Virus record (IMG/VR): IMGVR_UViG_3300035698_024184
Coordinates: 816 to 64,815 of that record
DNA from: a virus
Taxonomy: Duplodnaviria; Caudoviricetes
Strand: one strand, 5' to 3'
DNA length: 64,000 bases
Below the pieces are notes generated by a model. That model made no database searches and had not been told where the DNA came from. It was given only the letters and a program-made list of their open reading frames with translations. The position numbers were made by a program, and so were the translations under genes. Of the stretch, positions 1-56,255 are shown piece after piece (the first letter of the stretch is position 1; every line of letters begins with the position of its first letter).

Positions 1-16
1 TATAAGGAATATAGAG

Positions 17-40
17 TCTTAAAACCTCGACATCTTTTTA
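17..40 (-). repeat. Dispersed motif TAAAAAGATGTCGAGGTTTTAAGA (copy 1; copies at 336-359 and, degenerate, 6281-6299)
   Basis: tcttaaaacctcgacatcttttta is identical at 17-40 and 336-359; aaacctcgacatgctttta at 6281-6299; copies 1 and 3 begin at a TAA stop codon. Confidence 0.85.
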
Positions 41-286
41 CATCATCAGCCTTCTTTTTGGCCGCCGCTTCTGTCGCAACATAGTAAGCCAGCTACTAAA
101 CAAACCATTTAGTAACGCCATTTCATATGTTCCTCCATACTTATTAATACACCACTGAATAAATTCTTTAGTAACCTTCTTACTTGGTGTTTTTGCCTTT
201 AAAGTTCCTGCAATATATTCTATCAGATTTTTATCTTTTTCTTCTAATTTTTCATACCAATCATCTAATTTTTTATTTGCTTTCAT
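38..286 (-). CDS. Hypothetical early protein
   Basis: 82 aa ORF with AGAAAGG SD; last 46 nt duplicate part of gene 3129..4016 in another frame. Confidence 0.65.
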   Translation of the reverse strand: MKANKKLDDWYEKLEEKDKNLIEYIAGTLKAKTPSKKVTKEFIQWCINKYGGTYEMALLNGLFSSWLTMLRQKRRPKRRLMM

Positions 287-335
287 TTTTTACTACCTTT
301 CTATTGCCAAATCCCCTAAAACAAGAAATATATCA

Positions 336-359
336 TCTTAAAACCTCGACATCTTTTTA
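336..359 (-). repeat. Dispersed motif copy 2
   Basis: Identical 24-mer to 17-40. Confidence 0.85.
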
Positions 360-407
360 GTTAAAACTGGATAGAAACACCTGTAATTGTTGATAAATGC
401 AGGCTTT

Positions 408-572
408 TTATCTTTTATAATAGAAATATCCAATTTTCTTTTGCGCCATATCTCTTATCTTTTGTATTTCTTCTTTAGGCATAATAAGAGCATAATGTCC
501 TAAAGTAATGGACAAGATTTTTCTCCAATTTTCAATTTGTTTCTCATTTAATTTTTCTTCTTTTATTTTCAT
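408..572 (-). CDS. Hypothetical protein (start revised to MKIKEE)
   Basis: GAAAGG SD upstream of ATG at 572; the longer ORF start lies inside a hairpin. Confidence 0.6.
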   Translation of the reverse strand: MKIKEEKLNEKQIENWRKILSITLGHYALIMPKEEIQKIRDMAQKKIGYFYYKR

Positions 573-585
573 TTCTTTACCTTTC

Positions 586-619
586 AAAAATGGCGGAGTG
601 ATATTAAAAATCACTCCGC
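586..619 (-). terminator. Intrinsic terminator-like hairpin
   Basis: Perfect 10-bp IR gcggagtgat/atcactccgc followed by a T-run on the minus strand. Confidence 0.6.
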
Positions 620-684
620 TGTGTCTTAGAATGTTTGGTTTTTAACCAGAAGTCATAATAATCACCACCTTTTTTACTTCCTTT

Positions 685-966
685 TTATTGCCAAATCCCA
701 CAAAAATGTGGTAATTCTCTTACAAATGTATCCTCCTGATATACACGAATAGTTTTTAGAGGATAATCAATCCTATCTATATCAGGCCATTTAGCCTTCA
801 AAAACCTACTCATATCATCATCTTCTTCAAGATATACTAAATCCGTATTTTTATCATAATAACTATAAGAGGAAATTACAGTCATTAAACCTAATTCTTT
901 TATTTCAGCAAGAGATACTTCCAACCATCCATGCCCCGGATCTTCTATAAAACGATAAGTTTTCAT
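685..966 (-). CDS. Conserved phage hypothetical protein (DPGHGWL...YLEED motif)
   Basis: AGAAAGGA SD before ATG 966; motif familiar from phage hypotheticals. Confidence 0.75.
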   Translation of the reverse strand: MKTYRFIEDPGHGWLEVSLAEIKELGLMTVISSYSYYDKNTDLVYLEEDDDMSRFLKAKWPDIDRIDYPLKTIRVYQEDTFVRELPHFCGIWQ

Positions 967-983
967 TTTTAATTCCTTTCTAA

Positions 984-1034
984 TAGTATAGCGAACCATC
1001 TTATCAATCACTCAATAAGTGGCCCGCCATACTA
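984..1034 (-). promoter_or_regulatory. ~21-bp RNA hairpin immediately upstream of SD (candidate processing site)
   Basis: tagtatggcgggccacttatt pairs with gataagatggttcgctatacta on the minus strand, with four G-U pairs and one bulge. Confidence 0.7.
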
Positions 1035-1056
1035 ACCAAAGTGAACATGTTAGAAT

Positions 1057-1314
1057 TTAACTTTTTTGTAATTCACAACATAGATATTTATTATACTCAA
1101 CATAAATTATACCCTTATCCATATCAGTAGTACGATCAAAATATAGCTTTTTAGGAGAAGTTTTGAAAAAATTCTTACTTACAAACGCTGTTAATTGAAC
1201 ATCATCTTCCCAGTCTCCATCATATTCAACTTCACTATGTGGCCAAGAATCATTAACTTCAAATCCATCAACAGGATTTCCAATAACATCATATTTTCTT
1301 ATTTGTACTAACAT
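1057..1314 (-). CDS. Hypothetical protein
   Basis: 85 aa ORF, YDV.GN..DGFEVND motif. Confidence 0.7.
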   Translation of the reverse strand: MLVQIRKYDVIGNPVDGFEVNDSWPHSEVEYDGDWEDDVQLTAFVSKNFFKTSPKKLYFDRTTDMDKGIIYVEYNKYLCCELQKS

Positions 1315-1346
1315 ATTTTACTTCTTTCTAAAATTTAATATAAAGC

Positions 1347-1375
1347 CTGCGTAGGATCTTCGCACTCCCACGCAG
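1347..1375 (-). promoter_or_regulatory. Intergenic hairpin
   Basis: ctgcgtggga/tcctacgcag stem on the minus strand with one G-U; small ctcc/ggag hairpin adjacent. Confidence 0.5.
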
Positions 1376-1399
1376 ACTCCGAAAGGAGGAACCAGAAAA

Positions 1400-1900
1400 T
1401 TACTTATTAAATTTATTAAACCAATAGGTAACATTTCTTATCCAATTATGATTTACATCATATACATCATCTTTATCATCAAGAGGGCAGTATCTATTTC
1501 CCAAAAATTCAATATATTTTCCTGGACAACCAGCTTTTTTCCACCTAACACGATTTTTTACAACCGTAGCTGCTGCCCATCCAGCTTGAGTATCAAGATT
1601 AGTATTTTTAACTTTTTTAACTCCGAACTCAAATCCTTCTTGGCCATTTTCTGCCTTCCATATCGCTAATAGTATCAAAAAATCATCTTCATAACATTGA
1701 TTTCTAGCTGCTGCTATATGAACAATAGCTAATTGTGCTATTGGAAAAAATTGATCGTAATACGATGATATAAATGGGGGTCTTATTTCTTGAGCTTCTA
1801 CTACAGATTTTCGTAATGATATTATCAAACAAAAAACTGAAAATAGAATAATCAGTATCACAATACTCGTAAAAATCTCATACGTAAGTTTAGTTTTCAT
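1400..1900 (-). CDS. Membrane-anchored lysozyme-like/cell-wall hydrolase-like protein
   Basis: N-terminal TM helix; AIWKAENG...EFGV and FLGNRYCP..NW..NV motifs resemble lysozyme-superfamily proteins. Confidence 0.45.
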   Translation of the reverse strand: MKTKLTYEIFTSIVILIILFSVFCLIISLRKSVVEAQEIRPPFISSYYDQFFPIAQLAIVHIAAARNQCYEDDFLILLAIWKAENGQEGFEFGVKKVKNTNLDTQAGWAAATVVKNRVRWKKAGCPGKYIEFLGNRYCPLDDKDDVYDVNHNWIRNVTYWFNKFNK

Positions 1901-1970
1901 TACTGGGTTCCTAAAAAGAGGTTAAAATTTAACAGACTGGTAGATCAATCTGTTGTATAATAACATCTTT

Positions 1971-2366
1971 TTAATTCGTATCAAAACGATTGCGGCCCCT
2001 AAAACTCGTATTACTTATGGTTTTATTTTCAACTTTTATTTCAGGTTGACTTTGTAAACTTTCGACTTTTTGAGTAGCTAACAATCCCATTAAATTTACC
2101 AACGTCTGTTTACGAGTATTTTCATCAATTTCCTTATATTCATTAGAAATTGGTATATCAACAAATTCGTATAGCTTTTGTATAGCAGAAGACAACTTTG
2201 GTCCTTTAATAAGTATTAAAGCATTATCATCTTCAATAAAAACTATTAATAATTTATTAAAGAGAAAACTAGGGCCTTTTTTATGATCCCCAACTTTAAT
2301 ATCAATATCAAAATTTAATAATGCTTTTAATTTATCAAAATTATCCAAAAATTCTTCAATAGTCAT
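1971..2366 (-). CDS. Hypothetical protein (start revised to MTIEEF)
   Basis: AGAAAGGA SD before ATG 2366. Confidence 0.7.
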   Translation of the reverse strand: MTIEEFLDNFDKLKALLNFDIDIKVGDHKKGPSFLFNKLLIVFIEDDNALILIKGPKLSSAIQKLYEFVDIPISNEYKEIDENTRKQTLVNLMGLLATQKVESLQSQPEIKVENKTISNTSFRGRNRFDTN

Positions 2367-2422
2367 ATTATTATCCTTTCTTATATACAACAGACTGGTA
2401 GGATAACCTGTTACAAATATCA

Positions 2423-2587
2423 CTATACTGAATTTTTAATGTCTAAATGTAATTGTTTCAATTTTGGAGCTTCAGTTACACAATTTATCCAAAAAAGTTG
2501 CTCTTCGTTCATATTATAGACTATCACGTCTGTATCTAACAATTCAGGATATTCTTCTAACTTTTTAATAAGTTCTTTATACGTCAT
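2423..2587 (-). CDS. Small protein, tandem paralog A (MTYKELIKKLEEYPE..., 54 aa)
   Basis: Below the ORF track cutoff; AGAAAGGTAGG SD; first 24 nt identical to paralog B; ends TAG TGA. Confidence 0.75.
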   Translation of the reverse strand: MTYKELIKKLEEYPELLDTDVIVYNMNEEQLFWINCVTEAPKLKQLHLDIKNSV

Positions 2588-2608
2588 AATTTACCTACCT
2601 TTCTATAC

Positions 2609-2785
2609 TTATAAATGATCTGCCATTTTATAAAATTGTAATACAAGCTGGTCAATATCACCATTCATAAAGATATGCTGTACAGAATAACATTCATCTT
2701 CTTCTAAAGAGCAAACTATTACATCCGCATTTAACTCTTTTTCAGGATATTTTTCAAGCATTTTAATAAGTTCTTTATACGTCAT
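2609..2785 (-). CDS. Small protein, tandem paralog B (MTYKELIKMLEKYPE..., 58 aa)
   Basis: Below the ORF track cutoff; GAAAGGA SD; similar to paralog A. Confidence 0.75.
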   Translation of the reverse strand: MTYKELIKMLEKYPEKELNADVIVCSLEEDECYSVQHIFMNGDIDQLVLQFYKMADHL

Positions 2786-2844
2786 AATTTACATCCTTTC
2801 GGTATTCGTAACAGGCCAGTAGAACAATCTGTTAATCATTTGTT

Positions 2845-3033
2845 TTATATTGTTACTGCATCCTTACGAGTTCCATCCTTATTATACACATCTTTAACTT
2901 TTTCTCTCTGAATTGCAACGGTTACCGGAGCCTCAATTCCGATTCTTATACGATTTTTATTAGCTTTTAATATTTGAATTTCCGCATCACCAATACTAAT
3001 TACCTCATTAGGTTTTACAGTTAAAATAAGCAT
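2845..3033 (-). CDS. csrA: CsrA/RsmA-family translational regulator
   Basis: MLILT..PNE.I.IGD..I.IL....IRIGIEAP..V.I.RE pattern. Confidence 0.85.
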   Translation of the reverse strand: MLILTVKPNEVISIGDAEIQILKANKNRIRIGIEAPVTVAIQREKVKDVYNKDGTRKDAVTI

Positions 3034-3128
3034 ATAGATTTCCTTTCTAACAAATTGGTTAACAGACTGGTAGTAAATCCTGACTATTAAATTTATGATT
3101 TATCCTTAAATTAAACGCAAATCAACTT

Positions 3129-4016
3129 TTATTTACGTTTACGTTTTCCTGACGCAGTAGACCTACTTCTACTACGACTTACAGCGATTTTTAATGCTTC
3201 TGTACCACTTTTACCAGCGGCGGTTTTCAACGCTGCTTCCTTAGAAGCAATTTCAGCATCTGCTTCTTTAACAGCGGCTTCTTTTGCAGCTTCTACTTTA
3301 GCTTTTTCAACATCTTTTTCTTCTTTAGCTTTAACCTTTTCAGCATCTTTTTCTGCTTTAGCCTTAGCTTTTTCAACATCACGTGCTGCTTTTACCTTAG
3401 CTTTTTCAGCGTCTTTTTCTGCTTTAGCTTTGACTTTTACTGCTTTAGCTTCAGCAATTACATCATCAGCCTTCTTTTTTGCCGCCGCTTCTATCGCAAC
3501 ATAATTAGGAAGTTTACGTTTCCCAAAACCTTTGCACTTTTGCACAAAAACTTTGGCATCACGCATATCAATTTCCAAGGCTGCTTCTGACGACCAAACA
3601 TCATCAAAATTATCTTCTGTCTCAGCTATCCGCAAAGTAAAATCATGTTTCACACACAAAGCAGAAATAATCTTATTAATTTCTGTAAAAATTTCCTTCG
3701 GCATACCGCCATTAACTCGATTATTACGTTCAATTGCCTTTTCACGATGAGAGTTAATCAGCACCATAACTGGATCAAACGGACTTACAAAAATATAAGC
3801 CTCATGTGAACGATGTGCTCGTCTACCTCTTTCACGGAAAACTTGACAACCTGATCGGGCTTTTGGCGCTCGGTAATAACATACCCTAATACTAGGGATT
3901 TGTAATGTTATACCTGTACGAATATCTTCCATCAACTGACGATAATTTGATTCAACACTTTTGGTAGTAACTTCAGTTTCGGCCTGAGTTTCTACCACAC
4001 TATTAGAATTAGCCAT
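3129..4016 (-). CDS. Hypothetical protein with Lys/Ala/Glu-rich repetitive coiled-coil C-terminus
   Basis: KAKAEKDAEK repeats; basic tail SRSRSRS..KRKRK. Confidence 0.8.
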   Translation of the reverse strand: MANSNSVVETQAETEVTTKSVESNYRQLMEDIRTGITLQIPSIRVCYYRAPKARSGCQVFRERGRRAHRSHEAYIFVSPFDPVMVLINSHREKAIERNNRVNGGMPKEIFTEINKIISALCVKHDFTLRIAETEDNFDDVWSSEAALEIDMRDAKVFVQKCKGFGKRKLPNYVAIEAAAKKKADDVIAEAKAVKVKAKAEKDAEKAKVKAARDVEKAKAKAEKDAEKVKAKEEKDVEKAKVEAAKEAAVKEADAEIASKEAALKTAAGKSGTEALKIAVSRSRSRSTASGKRKRK

Positions 4017-4151
4017 GATTTAATGTCCTTTCATGCTAAGAATAGTCAGGACTTACTACCAGCCTGTTTTACAAGCTGTAATGTATCATTACTTTGATAC
4101 ATTGTTACAAATAATATACATCAATCCCTATTTTGAGCCACGTTTATTAAA

Positions 4152-4475
4152 CTATTCTTTATCAGAATTAAACCAGATAAAAATAACGTTATCGATCGTT
4201 GCTTCAATCAATTTTAATTTTGCATTAACACTTTTGGTAGAAGCTACCAAAATTGTCAACACTTGAAAATTGATTGCCATCGTCATAACTACAGGCAAAC
4301 TAAGTTTACTTTGTAATATAATTTTCAAACGATTGTCTGCTTGAACTCTGGCATAAATTAACTTAGACGCATCTTTCATCTCATATTTTTCATTTATTTT
4401 AACGAGAAATTCTTCAAGAGAATTACCCGTTTGAGCAACTTCAGATACATATTCTTTTAATGTTTGTTCACTCAT
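4152..4475 (-). CDS. Hypothetical protein (start revised to MSEQTL)
   Basis: GAAAGGA SD before ATG 4475. Confidence 0.7.
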   Translation of the reverse strand: MSEQTLKEYVSEVAQTGNSLEEFLVKINEKYEMKDASKLIYARVQADNRLKIILQSKLSLPVVMTMAINFQVLTILVASTKSVNAKLKLIEATIDNVIFIWFNSDKE

Positions 4476-4564
4476 AATAAATCCTTTCATGTAAATAAAC
4501 ATGACCCAAAATAGATATTGACAGATTTTAATATCAATCCCTATTTTGAGTCATACTTTAATTT

Positions 4565-4879
4565 TTAGCTTCTTCGTGAGGATATTTGAGATTTCTCATC
4601 CCAATATGTTGGTAAATCACTTTCAACTTTGAAAGCAAAATCCGTTTCTTCTTGATTTTCAGTATCATAATCGATTACAACTTCAATATAATCCCCAAAA
4701 TCATGTGCCTGTTTGATTAAACGAAACTTTGCTCTATTAGGTGGTTCTCCAAAAACTCGTTTTAATTGTGCAATATATGCTTTACATTCCAAACGAGCTT
4801 TTCGATTATAATCAGAATCACCAACTTGAACACAATTTTCGTCGGCTGGAGTAGGCCCAAGATATAAATACTCAATCAT
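4565..4879 (-). CDS. Conserved phage hypothetical protein (LGPTP.DE.CVQVG...HDFG.Y.EV)
   Basis: Recognisable motif; AGAAAGGA SD. Confidence 0.8.
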   Translation of the reverse strand: MIEYLYLGPTPADENCVQVGDSDYNRKARLECKAYIAQLKRVFGEPPNRAKFRLIKQAHDFGDYIEVVIDYDTENQEETDFAFKVESDLPTYWDEKSQISSRRS

Positions 4880-4970
4880 AATAGTTCCTTTCTATTTTAA
4901 TATGACCCAAAATAGAGATTGATACAAACGTCAATCCCTATTTTGAGTCATGTTTTATTATTCTCAATTT

Positions 4971-5252
4971 TTATCCATAAGCTATTAAAGCGAGTTCTTC
5001 ATAACACGCCCTAACAAGCGACTTTTTTGCATCTATATCATAACATTGCATAATTGAATTTACAAGAACTGACACACATTCTATAACTAAAATTCCACCT
5101 TCTGATTCTACAACCATATGACATATAGTAAACTCGTCATCATTAGTATCCATTTTTTGAATACCATCATAGATTGCTTGATAAGCAATAATTTTTTCTT
5201 TACTATGAACAATACACTTCAAAGACATTTCAAAGTAATCTTTTATTAACAT
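4971..5252 (-). CDS. Hypothetical protein (start revised to MLIKDY)
   Basis: AGAAAGGA SD before ATG 5252. Confidence 0.7.
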   Translation of the reverse strand: MLIKDYFEMSLKCIVHSKEKIIAYQAIYDGIQKMDTNDDEFTICHMVVESEGGILVIECVSVLVNSIMQCYDIDAKKSLVRACYEELALIAYG

Positions 5253-5680
5253 AATAGTTTCCTTTCTATTTTTAGATAAACATGACCCAAAATAGAGATT
5301 GACATTATCTGCCACAATAAAGGATTATTAAAAACTCATCATTCGAGTATAACACATCACATGTTATTCATCCTAAATATCGTATTATCTTTTTGGTTTT
5401 TAACGTGGTTTTCAATGGCTCCTCTACACGTAAATGCCATTCTTTCGATTTTGAGGTTTATTTAATGGCTAGTATTTATACTACTTCGTGCAATTCGTTA
5501 AAGAATCGACCGCTAGATCAGTATTCGCTGCTAGTCCATAGCATATATTTGATCCTAGTCATGTTTGTCCTTAACAGGTAATTTACAGCAACTAATCTGA
5601 AATGAATTTGTCGATCAGTCTAACTGGTGGATTGTATTTTCGCATGGGTGGCTAAAAATACGCAGTTACAAGGCGATTGT

Positions 5681-5709
5681 ATTTTACTGTTGTCGTATTC
5701 GATTGTCAA
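5681..5709 (-). promoter_or_regulatory. sigma70-type promoter P3
   Basis: TTGACA-17 bp-TAAAAT. Confidence 0.8.
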
Positions 5710-5728
5710 AGAACAGACAATAAAATGT

Positions 5729-5757
5729 ATAATATACATTACACATCATATTGTCAA
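5729..5757 (-). promoter_or_regulatory. sigma70-type promoter P2
   Basis: TTGACA-17 bp-TATTAT. Confidence 0.8.
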
Positions 5758-5766
5758 TTATTTAGC

Positions 5767-5794
5767 ATTATAGCATATCTAATATAGGTGTAAA
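5767..5794 (-). promoter_or_regulatory. sigma70-type promoter P1 (extended -10)
   Basis: TTTACA-16 bp-TATAAT with TGn extension; AT-rich upstream. Confidence 0.7.
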
Positions 5795-6296
5795 GAATAA
5801 AATAGTAAAATTTTATATTATTTTATAATAGCTATTTTATTGCATATTTAGCCACAATTAACCTCAAAAATAAATTTCATTAAAATACAATCTCCTCAAT
5901 CAGTAATTTACAGGTAGTACAGGTCAAAAAAGATTAGATAGTTGAACACACTTGAAATGAAGACGTTTTTATTTGAGTTTCTTTACAGTATCAAGACATA
6001 ATTCATCATTTGTTACAAATTAGCCTTAAAATACATCTTAATTCATCAGCTATTACACACACCTTTTTCGTATTATCATAGTCCTTTTTCTATTTAACAG
6101 TCCACCGTCTATAGTTAAAAGTACATCTCCTGCTTTTACTAGCCGAAATTTACCATTTATAAGCATCCATTTATCTTTTTTTATTCTTTTCATCTTAAAT
6201 ACCTCTTTTATTCTCTATTAAACTCGCTAAATAAATCTCGAAACTTCCCACCAAATTTTTGTATTGCATCAGGTAATACCAAACCTCGACATGCTT

Positions 6297-6515
6297 TTAG
6301 CACTTCTCAGCATCAATTCTATAAAGTATATCTTTTTGTCTTTTAGAAAATCTTTTTGGTGGATAGTCTATTAAATTACTAATGAAATTAACTTCCCATT
6401 CAGTAAGATTCATCGCTGTTTTATCAATACATTCTACTAATTTATGTAAATTTATTATTTCTTCATCTATTTTATTTCCTAACATACACATTCTTCCGAA
6501 ATTTCTTTCATCCAT
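6297..6515 (-). CDS. Hypothetical protein (LTEWE.NFI...FS.RQ motif)
   Basis: 72 aa ORF. Confidence 0.65.
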   Translation of the reverse strand: MDERNFGRMCMLGNKIDEEIINLHKLVECIDKTAMNLTEWEVNFISNLIDYPPKRFSKRQKDILYRIDAEKC

Positions 6516-28182: not shown

Positions 28183-28216
28183 ATTTAACTCCGTTCTTTT
28201 TAATTTTTTATAAAAA

Positions 28217-28289
28217 TAGCAGGGGTCGGAATCGAACCGACCTAACCAAGGTTATGAACCTCGTGAATTCACCAGAATTCTACCCTGCG
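28217..28289 (-). tRNA. tRNA-Met(CAT), initiator-like
   Basis: Cloverleaf CGCAGGG/CCCTGCT with unpaired 1:72, A11:U24, loop TT-CAT-AA, T-loop TTCGATT; no encoded CCA. Confidence 0.93.
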
Positions 28290-28326
28290 ACCTTCAGGTT
28301 GTGATCCTGTTTATCTCGCTACTCTT

Positions 28327-35359: not shown

Positions 35360-36268
35360 TTAAAAAATATCTGGTTTTAACTGTTTTATTTTTTGATAGC
35401 ATAATTTCTGTAATAAATTAAACTTTATTTCAGGGTTCCTGAACTTTTTAACAAAATTCCAACATTCCTCTGATACCAAATCATGGTAAACTGTATGTAG
35501 CAGGCGGAGTATATGCTTGCTCTCCCACCCTCCGGTTGTATTGACTATCTTAACATAGGTTTTTTCTACCAATGCTCCAGTACAATAACAATTAACAATA
35601 TCCTGTTCTGTTGTTTTTCCACCTTGCATCTTCGGAGCACCCATTGTTTTATCATGTAATTCCTGAAATTCAGACTTTACTATTTTTGCCCATGTTTGTC
35701 GTCCATACTTATTATAATAGTCGTAATTTTTAATTACTACACCTTCGCCTGTTCCCTGTCCGTCCTGTATAAGAAAAACATTTCTCTCTAATTGATGATA
35801 AAATTGCTCTTCAGTACCATTTTGAAAACTGCATAAAACAGGAATAAAATCAAGATTAAACTCTTCTAATAATTGCTTATAAACACTATAAGGAATATAT
35901 TCTAAACTCCTATTATTAACATTTATATCAAGAGTAACATCGAATATATAAAATTTATTCCAAGTATCATCTCTATAAGTTTTAAGGCTATGTCTAACTA
36001 AAAACTCACCAAATAACCTATGTGTCGGGTGTTTCTGTAGATATTCTTTTATGTTTTTCTGTTGTTGTATATAAGTCTTAAAACCAATATTGTCAAGATT
36101 GTCAATTAAATGCCTTGTCCGACTGCCACATTGTACTTCACCCTGGTCCAGCCAAACAGAGCCATTGGTTCCATCTATTTTCGGCATCAATACACATTCC
36201 CCTATTTCTATACCCTCTACCTCAGAAGTCCCCCATCTTTCTATATGTTGATATTTAGCAAACTCCAC
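35360..36268 (-). CDS. RNA ligase-family (Rnl2-like) nucleotidyltransferase
   Basis: KY.HIER, PKIDGTN, GSR, FGE, FYIFDV, EGVVIK, AK; no OB domain. Confidence 0.8.
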   Translation of the reverse strand: MEFAKYQHIERWGTSEVEGIEIGECVLMPKIDGTNGSVWLDQGEVQCGSRTRHLIDNLDNIGFKTYIQQQKNIKEYLQKHPTHRLFGEFLVRHSLKTYRDDTWNKFYIFDVTLDINVNNRSLEYIPYSVYKQLLEEFNLDFIPVLCSFQNGTEEQFYHQLERNVFLIQDGQGTGEGVVIKNYDYYNKYGRQTWAKIVKSEFQELHDKTMGAPKMQGGKTTEQDIVNCYCTGALVEKTYVKIVNTTGGWESKHILRLLHTVYHDLVSEECWNFVKKFRNPEIKFNLLQKLCYQKIKQLKPDIF

Positions 36269-45749: not shown

Positions 45750-45973
45750 TTATGATCTCCAAAAGGAACTCGATTTCCATTTTTATCAACAACATACCTC
45801 TTTCCCTGACGTAGACGTTTAAACCCCTCTGTTTGTTCATATCCAACTATATCTAACTTCATTGGCTCAAAACCCAAACAATGTGGATCTCCTTTACATA
45901 TTTTTCGCTTTCCACATCTTTGACAAATTTTACTATTATTTGGATATTGATTCTTTTTTATTATCGTTACCAT
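45746..45973 (-). CDS. Hypothetical Cys-rich protein
   Basis: 75 aa ORF. Confidence 0.6.
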   Translation of the reverse strand: MVTIIKKNQYPNNSKICQRCGKRKICKGDPHCLGFEPMKLDIVGYEQTEGFKRLRQGKRYVVDKNGNRVPFGDHK

Positions 45974-46139
45974 CTAGTATCCTTTCATATACTTCTTTAC
46001 GATAAATAGATACTTTATCAGAAGCCTTAAAGCCTAATCGAACTTGTTTACCATTTACATTAGTAACCTTAACAACAATTATTTCATCTCCAATCGCAAT
46101 AATTACTTCTTGATCTATTTTACGTCCTAAAACTAACAT
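45936..46139 (-). CDS. csrA: CsrA/RsmA-family regulator (second copy)
   Basis: MLVLGRK..Q.V.I.IGD.I.V.V..V.G.QVRLG..A...V.IYR.EVY. Confidence 0.92.
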   Translation of the reverse strand: MLVLGRKIDQEVIIAIGDEIIVVKVTNVNGKQVRLGFKASDKVSIYRKEVYERILDGNDNKKESISK

Positions 46140-47925: not shown

Positions 47926-48516
47926 TTATCGAAAATCACAACACTTTACTTTAGTAATGATTCTTCGTCCCGCACGATTAGATAATCCAACCCTCGGTCT
48001 AGCCACAATTCCTTCTGCTTCAAACTCCCCATAATATGATTTAAACCCCTTTTTAACTGTTTCAATTGCTTTTCCTAACGTTCCAATCCCCCAACAGGGT
48101 ACTTGTAAAACTTCATGCTCTAAAGCCCACAAATCCACATCATTTTGCGTTAACCACCATTTTCCACATCTAATATCAAAAAGTACAAATCGTTGATCTG
48201 TAAAATATTTATCACCACCTTGAATTTTTGGACCAACACCTTCTCCATATAATATAGTGTTTTCAAACAATGAGGGATCTTTAAATTTATTTTGTAAATA
48301 CTCTATTAATTGTTTAGGTAATTCGGCTTTATCAGTACGACCTGCAAATCTTATTTCTTCATTCTCAAAAATAACTCGAATATTCATTCCATCTAATTTT
48401 TCACTAAGTAACCAATCATTATTAAACAAATATTGAAACTCAGGTTCACTGAATTCTCCATTAAATTTATGAGTATCATGGTCCCTTTTATAAATTGATT
48501 GAATTTTATGATACAT
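47926..48516 (-). CDS. RNA ligase-family nucleotidyltransferase (short)
   Basis: YHKI, EKLDG.N.R, GR, LYGEG.G.KIQ, FVLFDI, EGIV, K.K. Confidence 0.8.
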   Translation of the reverse strand: MYHKIQSIYKRDHDTHKFNGEFSEPEFQYLFNNDWLLSEKLDGMNIRVIFENEEIRFAGRTDKAELPKQLIEYLQNKFKDPSLFENTILYGEGVGPKIQGGDKYFTDQRFVLFDIRCGKWWLTQNDVDLWALEHEVLQVPCWGIGTLGKAIETVKKGFKSYYGEFEAEGIVARPRVGLSNRAGRRIITKVKCCDFR

Positions 48517-56187: not shown

Positions 56188-56255
56188 TGCACCACCAAGG
56201 AGTTGAACCCTGAACCATCAGAAATCTGATACTTTTCCTATTAAGCTAGTAGTGC
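56188..56255 (-). tRNA. tRNA-like RNA lacking the anticodon loop (possibly derived from tRNA-Arg(TCT))
   Basis: GCACTAC/GTGGTGC acceptor stem, D-arm GCTT-AATAGGAA-AAGT, TCAGA-TT-TCTGA, T-arm CAGGG-TTCAACT-CCTTG. Confidence 0.8.

Follow-up and report, generated by a model that had tools for sequence, protein, structure and literature searches.

Seven successive gene units on the minus strand of a viral contig are bracketed by pairs of complementary sequence arms, one lying ahead of the ribosome-binding site and the other following the stop codon. The units (u1 to u7, in the order in which a minus-strand transcript would cross them) occupy positions 1946–5303 of the window, the 64,000 nucleotides (nt) analysed here out of the 64,815 bases of the IMG/VR virus contig IMGVR_UViG_3300035698_024184, which has an estimated completeness of about 41%. 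The minus strand carries nearly all genes of the window. We consider the chances about even that the arms serve as long-range double-stranded RNA elements marking off the individual cistrons, with the RNase III of the host as the probable cutting enzyme. All seven arm pairs described in an initial annotation of this DNA were found again at the same positions.

The arms of the first three units belong to one sequence family (family 1). In u1, the 5′ arm (5278–5303) and the 3′ arm (4930–4955) form a stem of 26 positions, 24 of them Watson–Crick and two G-U pairs; in u2 (4901–4924 and 4532–4555) there are 24 positions, with 22 Watson–Crick and two G-U pairs, and in u3 (4494–4521 and 4121–4148) 28 positions, with 23 Watson–Crick pairs, four G-U pairs and one mismatch. 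The 5′ arm of u4 (4041–4068) is a whole junction element of the second family (family 2) in inverted orientation, and makes 28 pairs (26 Watson–Crick and two G-U) with a 3′ arm at 3061–3088, 952 nt away, with weaker pairing continuing out to 4079. The stem of u5 (3049–3069 and 2825–2844) has about 20 positions and requires a 1-nt bulge, that of u6 (2800–2818 and 2404–2422) has 19 positions as minus-strand RNA (13 Watson–Crick pairs, five G-U pairs and one mismatch), and that of u7 (2381–2397 and 1946–1963) has 14 contiguous pairs. Helices of at least 20 positions are thus found in four of the seven units (u1–u4), and those of u5–u7 have 14–20 positions with mismatches. Because 9 nt (3061–3069) are common to the 3′ arm of u4 and the 5′ arm of u5, the stems of these two units cannot both be complete.

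The placement of the arms relative to the genes is regular. Helices of 14–28 bp are predicted between arms 320–950 nt apart, and the 3′ arms begin 0–15 nt past the stop codon (40 nt in u4), those of u5 and u6 directly adjoining it. The 5′ arms end 14–25 nt ahead of the start codon and 0–10 nt ahead of the ribosome-binding site, so that their reported position just before the Shine–Dalgarno sequence is exact for some units, where the two adjoin, and loose for others, where the gap reaches 10 nt. The ribosome-binding site GAAAGGA is present once per unit, and seven of its 12 minus-strand occurrences in the window fall in the array. The arms respect the borders of the open reading frames (ORFs) and the neighbouring ribosome-binding sites, which argues for a function in RNA.

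Cross-gene pairing in the array exceeds chance. The 45-nt 5′ and 3′ flanks of minus-strand ORFs were compared (102 called; only ORFs with full flanks were scored), a definition outside which u4 and u6 lie, and the top five genes were all array units, at -39.4, -37.3, -33.5, -24.8 and -23.5 kcal/mol. The best gene outside the array reached -18.8, and 3916 mismatched flank pairs, taken as the null, averaged -9.5 (standard deviation 3.4). A scan of the whole window as minus-strand RNA for long-range helices with 20 pairs or more gave 11, eight of them in the array; the plus strand gave two such helices in the window, with one in the array against the eight on the minus strand. The family-1 helices attain 20 pairs solely when read as minus-strand RNA. 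A recount of the non-Watson–Crick positions agreed with the asymmetry first described, 16 being G-U on the minus (coding) strand versus two on the plus strand, and the duplexes are more stable on the minus than on the plus strand in six of the seven units (for u3, -33.5 versus -18.2). Set against composition, a G-U share of 16/18 has a P of 0.0046–0.016.

Both arm families proposed in the initial annotation were recovered, and their motifs are confined to the array. All five occurrences of AACAGNCNNGTAG in the window lie there, as do all six matches to CAAAATAGNGATTGA at 0–1 mismatch, with two chance two-mismatch matches outside. The family-1 core comprises 21 nt and has six copies in the window, three per orientation. 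Two wobble positions are conserved across all three family-1 units, and the same A-to-G change that gives the 3′ arms of this family their AGGGA creates one of these conserved wobbles. The family-2 element (AACAGRCYRGTAG, 5–6 nt, YCTGTT on the plus strand) has four direct copies and one inverted copy, the 5′ arm of u4. A GTAG/CTAC tetranucleotide is conserved in all five family-2 elements and is absent from family 1; on the plus strand GTAG is found at 1940–1943, 2398–2401, 2819–2822 and 3070–3073, and CTAC at 4056–4059. In the mRNA strand the corresponding CUAC is left unpaired between successive family-2 stems, or lies inside the 6-nt loop of an alternative local hairpin, and some other factor might recognise it or cut there.

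Pairing had been described as specific to each unit. This was borne out for family 2, where own partners are clearly favoured, and not for family 1, whose arms are interchangeable. Own-partner duplexes of family 2 have energies of -47.1, -18.6, -20.8 and -19.7 kcal/mol, and all other combinations, local ones included, range from -5.0 to -11.8, leaving the own partners ahead by 7–35. In this family in-register pairing extends past the shared 9-nt palindromic core, covering nine of ten positions in u6, a run of five Watson–Crick pairs in u7, and six of ten positions without gaps in u5 (more with one bulge); the in-register count is used in place of energies because those of the extensions by themselves are not significant. 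For family 1 the own-partner duplexes have -41.6 (u1), -36.7 and -33.5 kcal/mol, and the outermost pair, the 5′ arm of u1 with the 3′ arm of u3, is nearly equal to the own pairing of u1, at -40.2.

Ensemble calculations were made for the freely folding RNA and with the ORFs held open, as a mimic of translation. Under both conditions the 5′ arm of u1 paired with the 3′ arm of u3 (probability 0.99), the 5′ arm of u3 with the 3′ arm of u1 (0.93), and the two arms of u2 with each other (0.999); the minimum-free-energy fold also gave this concentric arrangement. The own-partner probability of u4 was 0.97–0.98 in both, that of u6 rose from 0.61 in the free fold to 0.82 with ORFs held open, and that of u7 was 0.95 with ORFs held open. 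Folding of the minus strand, the check proposed along with the initial annotation, favoured the long-range stems over local hairpins and gave a concentric topology for family 1. In this equilibrium model the picture of each cistron in its own stem applies to u2, u4, u6 and u7 (with ORFs open); it does not apply to u1 and u3, which pair concentrically, or to u5, where the overlap with u4 prevents the stem. Folds of the growing transcript formed the bracket of u1 first and that of u2 next, even once the local competitor arm had been transcribed, and turned concentric only upon emergence of the last family-1 arm. In these models kinetics may favour side-by-side brackets and thermodynamics nested ones, the energy differences between the two arrangements falling within model error.

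The following scheme would account for the layout. On the minus strand a triple promoter cluster and a leader lacking ORFs precede the seven gene units of the array. The three sigma-70-like promoters (5794–5767, 5757–5729 and 5709–5681) each match 11 of 12 consensus positions; the window has seven sites with at least 11/12, all on the minus strand, and three of them are gathered in the 114-nt stretch 5681–5794, the presumed start of the early transcript. A long early transcript would start at these promoters and cross the array, where each cistron (in one case a pair of paralogs) would be delimited by a 5′ arm and a 3′ arm pairing in the RNA. No terminator-like site with more than five pairs was found on the coding strand inside the array. 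Each 5′ arm is already present when its 3′ arm is made, so that brackets can arise side by side, one after another, as transcription proceeds. The helices of u1–u4, of about two turns, would be the most likely substrates of RNase III, which is specific for double strands; the enzyme is assumed to be that of the host, since the contig has no gene for it. Cutting would free single-gene mRNAs with ends still base-paired, and hence shielded from exonucleases. The cuts would fall in the same arms whatever the choice of partner, giving the same single-gene products, and the own ends of each mRNA would be left paired in the side-by-side topology only.

The components of this scheme have precedents. 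In bacterial ribosomal RNA (rrn) operons, the mature RNA is flanked by complementary segments which pair, across hundreds to thousands of nt, into a long helix within one precursor. RNase III cleavage of the two large stems, around 23S and 16S, is described in PMC6582327. Like the rrn leader–trailer stems, the array has long-range complementary flanks, with several units in series; unlike them, it encloses protein-coding cistrons with ribosome-binding sites, has seven units and two families, with the family-1 arms interchangeable, and cleavage is something that we infer here. For B. subtilis RNase III, PMC11780869 (Taggart et al. 2025) describes long-range intramolecular mRNA duplexes of 10–36 bp with at most 505 nt between cuts and a 2-bp stagger, U-G wobbles enriched in the distal box, and targets scattered as 73 sites on 45 mRNAs; the early mRNA of phage SP82 is given as a known non-native target of RNase III in PMC4838370. 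The array stems, at 14–28 bp, are within the 10–36 bp range and share the feature of conserved wobbles, and they differ in forming serial brackets around successive cistrons with loops of up to 952 nt. In the icaR mRNA of S. aureus, the 3′ untranslated region (UTR) reportedly covers the ribosome-binding site and represses a single gene, the duplex being an RNase III target. The 5′–3′ UTR pairing of this mRNA is the subject of PMC3868564. In contrast to icaR, the ribosome-binding sites of the array are outside the arms, and the layout is repeated over seven units. A literature search for serial gene brackets of this kind in phages found none. The layout joins known pieces, namely bracket stems of the rRNA type, an early operon of the T7 type and long-range RNase III targets of Firmicutes.

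If the arms work as RNA, the early operon is built of standard units (stem, ribosome-binding site, gene, stem), and the design of rRNA processing is applied to protein-coding genes. The T7 model of early-mRNA processing would then extend from local hairpins to long-range brackets, and the phage would possess a natural form of the cistron insulation and end protection that is engineered in synthetic biology by ribozymes or Csy4 sites. The same arms could serve as handles for the swapping of early ORFans, linking RNA processing signals to genome plasticity. The window offers a clean case, with seven units and two arm families.

Several points weigh against cistron-delimiting RNA stems. At equilibrium the family-1 arms fold concentrically, and the own-partner probability of u1 and u3 is 0.00; that of the u5 stem is also 0.00 while the u4 helix stands, and that of the u7 stem is 0.004 in the unconstrained fold. 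The extension-only duplex energies of family 2 (-5.1, -4.1 and -2.3) are not unusual when compared with random 14-mers. Composition of the coding strand alone predicts that 58–65% of transition mismatches would be G-U, and when positions shared across a family are counted once (a collapsing that is a matter of judgement) the G-U share becomes 11/13, with P of 0.04–0.09, so that the strand bias is suggestive only. Where arms adjoin stop codons (u5 and u6), ribosomes terminating there would open them. The contig, which represents about 41% of the genome, has no RNase III gene, and no homologous locus whose covariation could be compared was found in any collection searched.

The arms could instead be boundaries of cassettes at the DNA level, which we regard as unlikely, although the two readings are not mutually exclusive. 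The units would once have been circular or exchangeable pieces, each with a palindromic site whose loop was opened on integration, or early genes shuffled through short homologies, and RNA pairing would be a by-product. The enclosed genes are mutually unrelated and mostly ORFans, and the arms with the ribosome-binding site are conserved modules, as would suit such a history. A hairpin site opened in its loop would give just the layout observed, with cross-gene matches, hybrid junction hairpins and one orphan half-site per end, and the GTAG/CTAC tetranucleotide is present at all five family-2 elements. Cassettes would predict neither the strand bias of G-U pairs nor that of duplex stability. 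There is no common crossover core, because the spacers at the family-1 junctions differ in length (5 and 10 nt) and in sequence, and the tandem duplication of u6 within a single bracket departs from a rule of one gene to one cassette. No joints or deletions of units were seen in contigs from four DNA runs that contain parts of the array, at very low depth. Of the enzymes that could be expected, neither a tyrosine integrase (PF00589) nor a Y1 transposase (PF01797) is encoded on this incomplete contig.

Three known systems bear on the cassette explanation. Integron cassettes, too, are promoterless single-gene units lined up after one common promoter, and both ends of a cassette derive from one folded palindromic site. 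Their attC hairpins, however, are local and placed at the 3′ end of the cassette, and the contig lacks the tyrosine integrase; the core GTTRRRY was not seen in the arms on reading them, with no tool search made (GTTAACC, GTTGTAT and GTTACGA do not fit). REP elements, which RAYT transposases mobilise, have a GTAG tetranucleotide next to a palindrome. Compared with REP/REPIN, GTAG/CTAC is limited to the family-2 elements of the array, and the PF01797 transposase is absent. The PeSLs of T4-type phages are described in PMC2839356 and PMC4122927 as direct repeats of a sigma-70 promoter and a terminator hairpin, which mediate the shuffling of early ORFans and form mini-circles. The array resembles them in having short conserved intergenic modules on either side of early genes that are small and mostly ORFans, modules that could act as points of recombination. 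It is unlike them in that the arms are complementary across the gene and carry no convincing promoter or terminator: the best coding-strand promoter match within the arms is 9/12, none reaching 10/12, and the minus-strand junctions have no terminator-like site, the junction hairpins not being followed by U runs.

An improbable explanation, in our view, is that these are ordinary intercistronic elements as in T7, where the family-1 junctions would act as local 21-bp hairpins (processing sites or 3′-end stabilisers), the family-2 junctions as short hairpins or protein-binding motifs, and the cross-gene matches would be secondary. The early region of T7 has tandem promoters A1–A3, a polycistronic transcript and the RNase III sites R0.3, R0.5, R1, R1.1 and R1.3, which are self-contained local hairpins with internal loops. 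The array is similar in its three tandem strong promoters of host type and in the double-stranded RNA element predicted at each cistron border. In isolation the two family-1 junctions do fold into 21-bp hairpins with 8–10 nt loops (-29.1 and -26.0 kcal/mol), one of them an alternative pairing of the u2 5′ arm with 4930–4955, and a local hairpin zips faster than a long-range helix. Family-2 junctions can form local hairpins of 5–9 bp with a 6-nt loop ending in CUAC, and the last junction reaches -20.3 kcal/mol. Two half-sites of family 1, however, have no local partner: as the initial annotation noted, the outermost arms (at 4121 and 5278) are matched only across a gene. The local duplexes of this family (-29.5 and -27.4 kcal/mol) are 7–12 kcal/mol weaker than the own-partner duplexes, and local hairpins had a probability of 0.00 in both ensemble calculations. 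The remaining family-2 local folds are weak (-5.0, -6.8 and -12.2 kcal/mol) compared with the cross-gene stems of 14–28 bp, and a palindrome of 6–9 bp does not explain the 28-pair stem of u4 across 952 nt. The array thus departs from T7 in its unpartnered half-sites, its weak family-2 hairpins and a long-range pairing that is more stable than the local one.

Stems that form in the RNA and act without cleavage seem quite improbable. They would hold a stop codon near the ribosome-binding site of the same cistron for re-initiation, insulate cistrons, or display GGA to two CsrA proteins of the phage. The closeness of the 3′ arms to the stop codon (0–15 nt, or 40 nt in u4) and of the 5′ arms to the start codon (14–25 nt) would favour such a device, and one CsrA gene is within the array, with a second at 45936–46139. 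CsrA binds by preference to a GGA exposed in the loop of a hairpin. The ribosome-binding sites of u1 and u2 are predicted to present their GGA in this way, in a hairpin with a 5-bp stem (AAUAG...CUAUU) at 5253–5277 in u1 and 4880–4900 in u2, both on the minus strand, and the family-1 3′ arms carry AGGGA. Against this device, RNase III cuts helices of 24–28 bp, so those of the array would be cut in any host that has the enzyme, and the concentric pairing of family 1 would not bring the stop and start of u1 or u3 together.

As an extension of RNase III processing, the cut mRNA ends (5′-phosphate and 3′-hydroxyl) might be sealed into circles by an RNA-ligase-family enzyme of the phage, or the mRNAs might form non-covalent loops with re-initiation on the same cistron; we find this highly improbable. 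Such circles would be covalently closed, exonuclease-proof and endlessly translatable early mRNAs. What speaks for the idea is the pair of RNA_ligase-family (PF09414) genes at 35360–36268 and 47926–48516 (E values of 1e-18 and 7e-17), and the ends that RNase III leaves, a duplex with a 2-nt overhang, would be a poor geometry for ring closure. Three further candidates were rejected: promoters of a phage RNA polymerase, since the inverted copies past each gene would yield antisense transcripts; invertible segments or shufflons, since every unit has its gene complete, with a single ribosome-binding site and in one orientation; and transposon-like terminal inverted repeats, since reading of the flanks showed no target-site duplications.

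The genes within the units are mostly without known relatives. Among the ten proteins that were scanned, one has a Pfam family and two have a PHROG match. The unit genes are all on the minus strand. The genes of u1 (4971–5252, 93 amino acids (aa)), u3 (4152–4475, 107 aa) and u7 (1971–2366, 131 aa) belong to no known family, and for that of u2 (4565–4879, 104 aa) tblastn gave a single weak relative, in a phage record lacking annotation (30.9% identity, E 9e-6). The u4 gene (3129–4016, 295 aa) encodes an ORFan N-terminal domain and a Lys/Ala/Glu-rich C-terminus built on a 33-nt repeat; the repeats, at 3231–3464, give the C-terminal half of the protein a periodic sequence. The u5 gene (2845–3033, 62 aa) encodes a CsrA-family RNA-binding protein (PF02599, E 7.4e-15; phrog_9500, E 1.5e-11). 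Unit u6 has two tandem paralogs in one bracket, 2609–2785 (58 aa, matching phrog_1057) and 2423–2587 (54 aa); the duplication has 88% identity over 59 nt, including the ribosome-binding site and start, and the arms were not copied. The 64.8-kb contig, about 41% of the genome, encodes no member of the RNase III, tyrosine integrase (PF00589) or Y1 transposase (PF01797) families.

The phage is an orphan, with no usable relative found by DNA or protein search. Megablast and blastn of 1900–5400 against phage records gave no match, and the arm pattern had no match in IMG/VR, where the u4 protein and a 1005-aa ribonucleotide reductase of the phage also found no relative; the nearest GenBank phage homologue of the reductase is 33% identical. 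A word-indexed protein search with u2 and u5 found no relative, and an ESM Atlas search with u4 gave no usable match. HMMER with the N-terminal 175 aa of u4 against 1.84 billion representatives returned a single match (E 6.4e-4), in a protein of 2527 aa. When u2, the N-terminal part of u4 and the first u6 paralog were compared with phage records by tblastn, the weak match of u2 was the only one. In that GC-rich record a 15-nt inverted pair flanks the match, and it was set aside as background-like, with 44 short inverted repeats in 2.3 kb. A metagenome scan with the junction pattern gave 52 loci, all unrelated perfect palindromes lacking extended similarity, and a scan of genome contigs with the arm pattern gave 11, every one a chance match in an unrelated genome, usually a GC-rich one. 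The contigs of the four DNA runs mentioned above, labelled salt lake metagenome, are identical short pieces of the array at very low depth, the sole difference being C>T at 2428; no RNA run was among those listed for the stretch. A low GC content, together with the GAAAGGA ribosome-binding sites, points to a salt-lake host resembling Firmicutes.

The leader (5304–5680 on the minus strand, about 375 nt) has no minus-strand ORF of at least 40 aa, and its fold is unremarkable (z-score -1.67). Rfam gave no match in the leader; matches at the gathering threshold were to tRNA only and lie outside the array, and the region 1–6500 has a single sub-threshold match, to U4, at 569–707. A tRNA at 56188–56255 was detected by Rfam (50.1 bits) and not by ARAGORN, the only match of which is a tRNA-Met at 28216–28290.

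At the downstream end of the array, the last family-2 junction element (1917–1945, minus strand) includes a 5′-arm-like sequence. This eighth arm-like motif (about 1917–1939) is upstream of the gene at 1400–1900 and has no partner on the far side of that gene (-12.9 kcal/mol, p 0.16). A site resembling a promoter (TTGATA, 16 nt, TATTAT, with TG upstream; 10/12) lies at 1957–1984 on the minus strand, across part of the u7 3′ arm, and could drive this gene. After the gene there is a 15-bp hairpin at 1342–1380 (minus), not scored as a terminator by the scan, and further on, at 619–593 (minus), a hairpin that resembles a canonical terminator, T run included; the early transcript may end at either of them. 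Past the array, two small genes in succession have their stop codons followed by copies of a direct repeat of about 22 nt, AAAAGATGTCGAGGTTTTAAGA, at about 333–357 and 16–39 on the minus strand.

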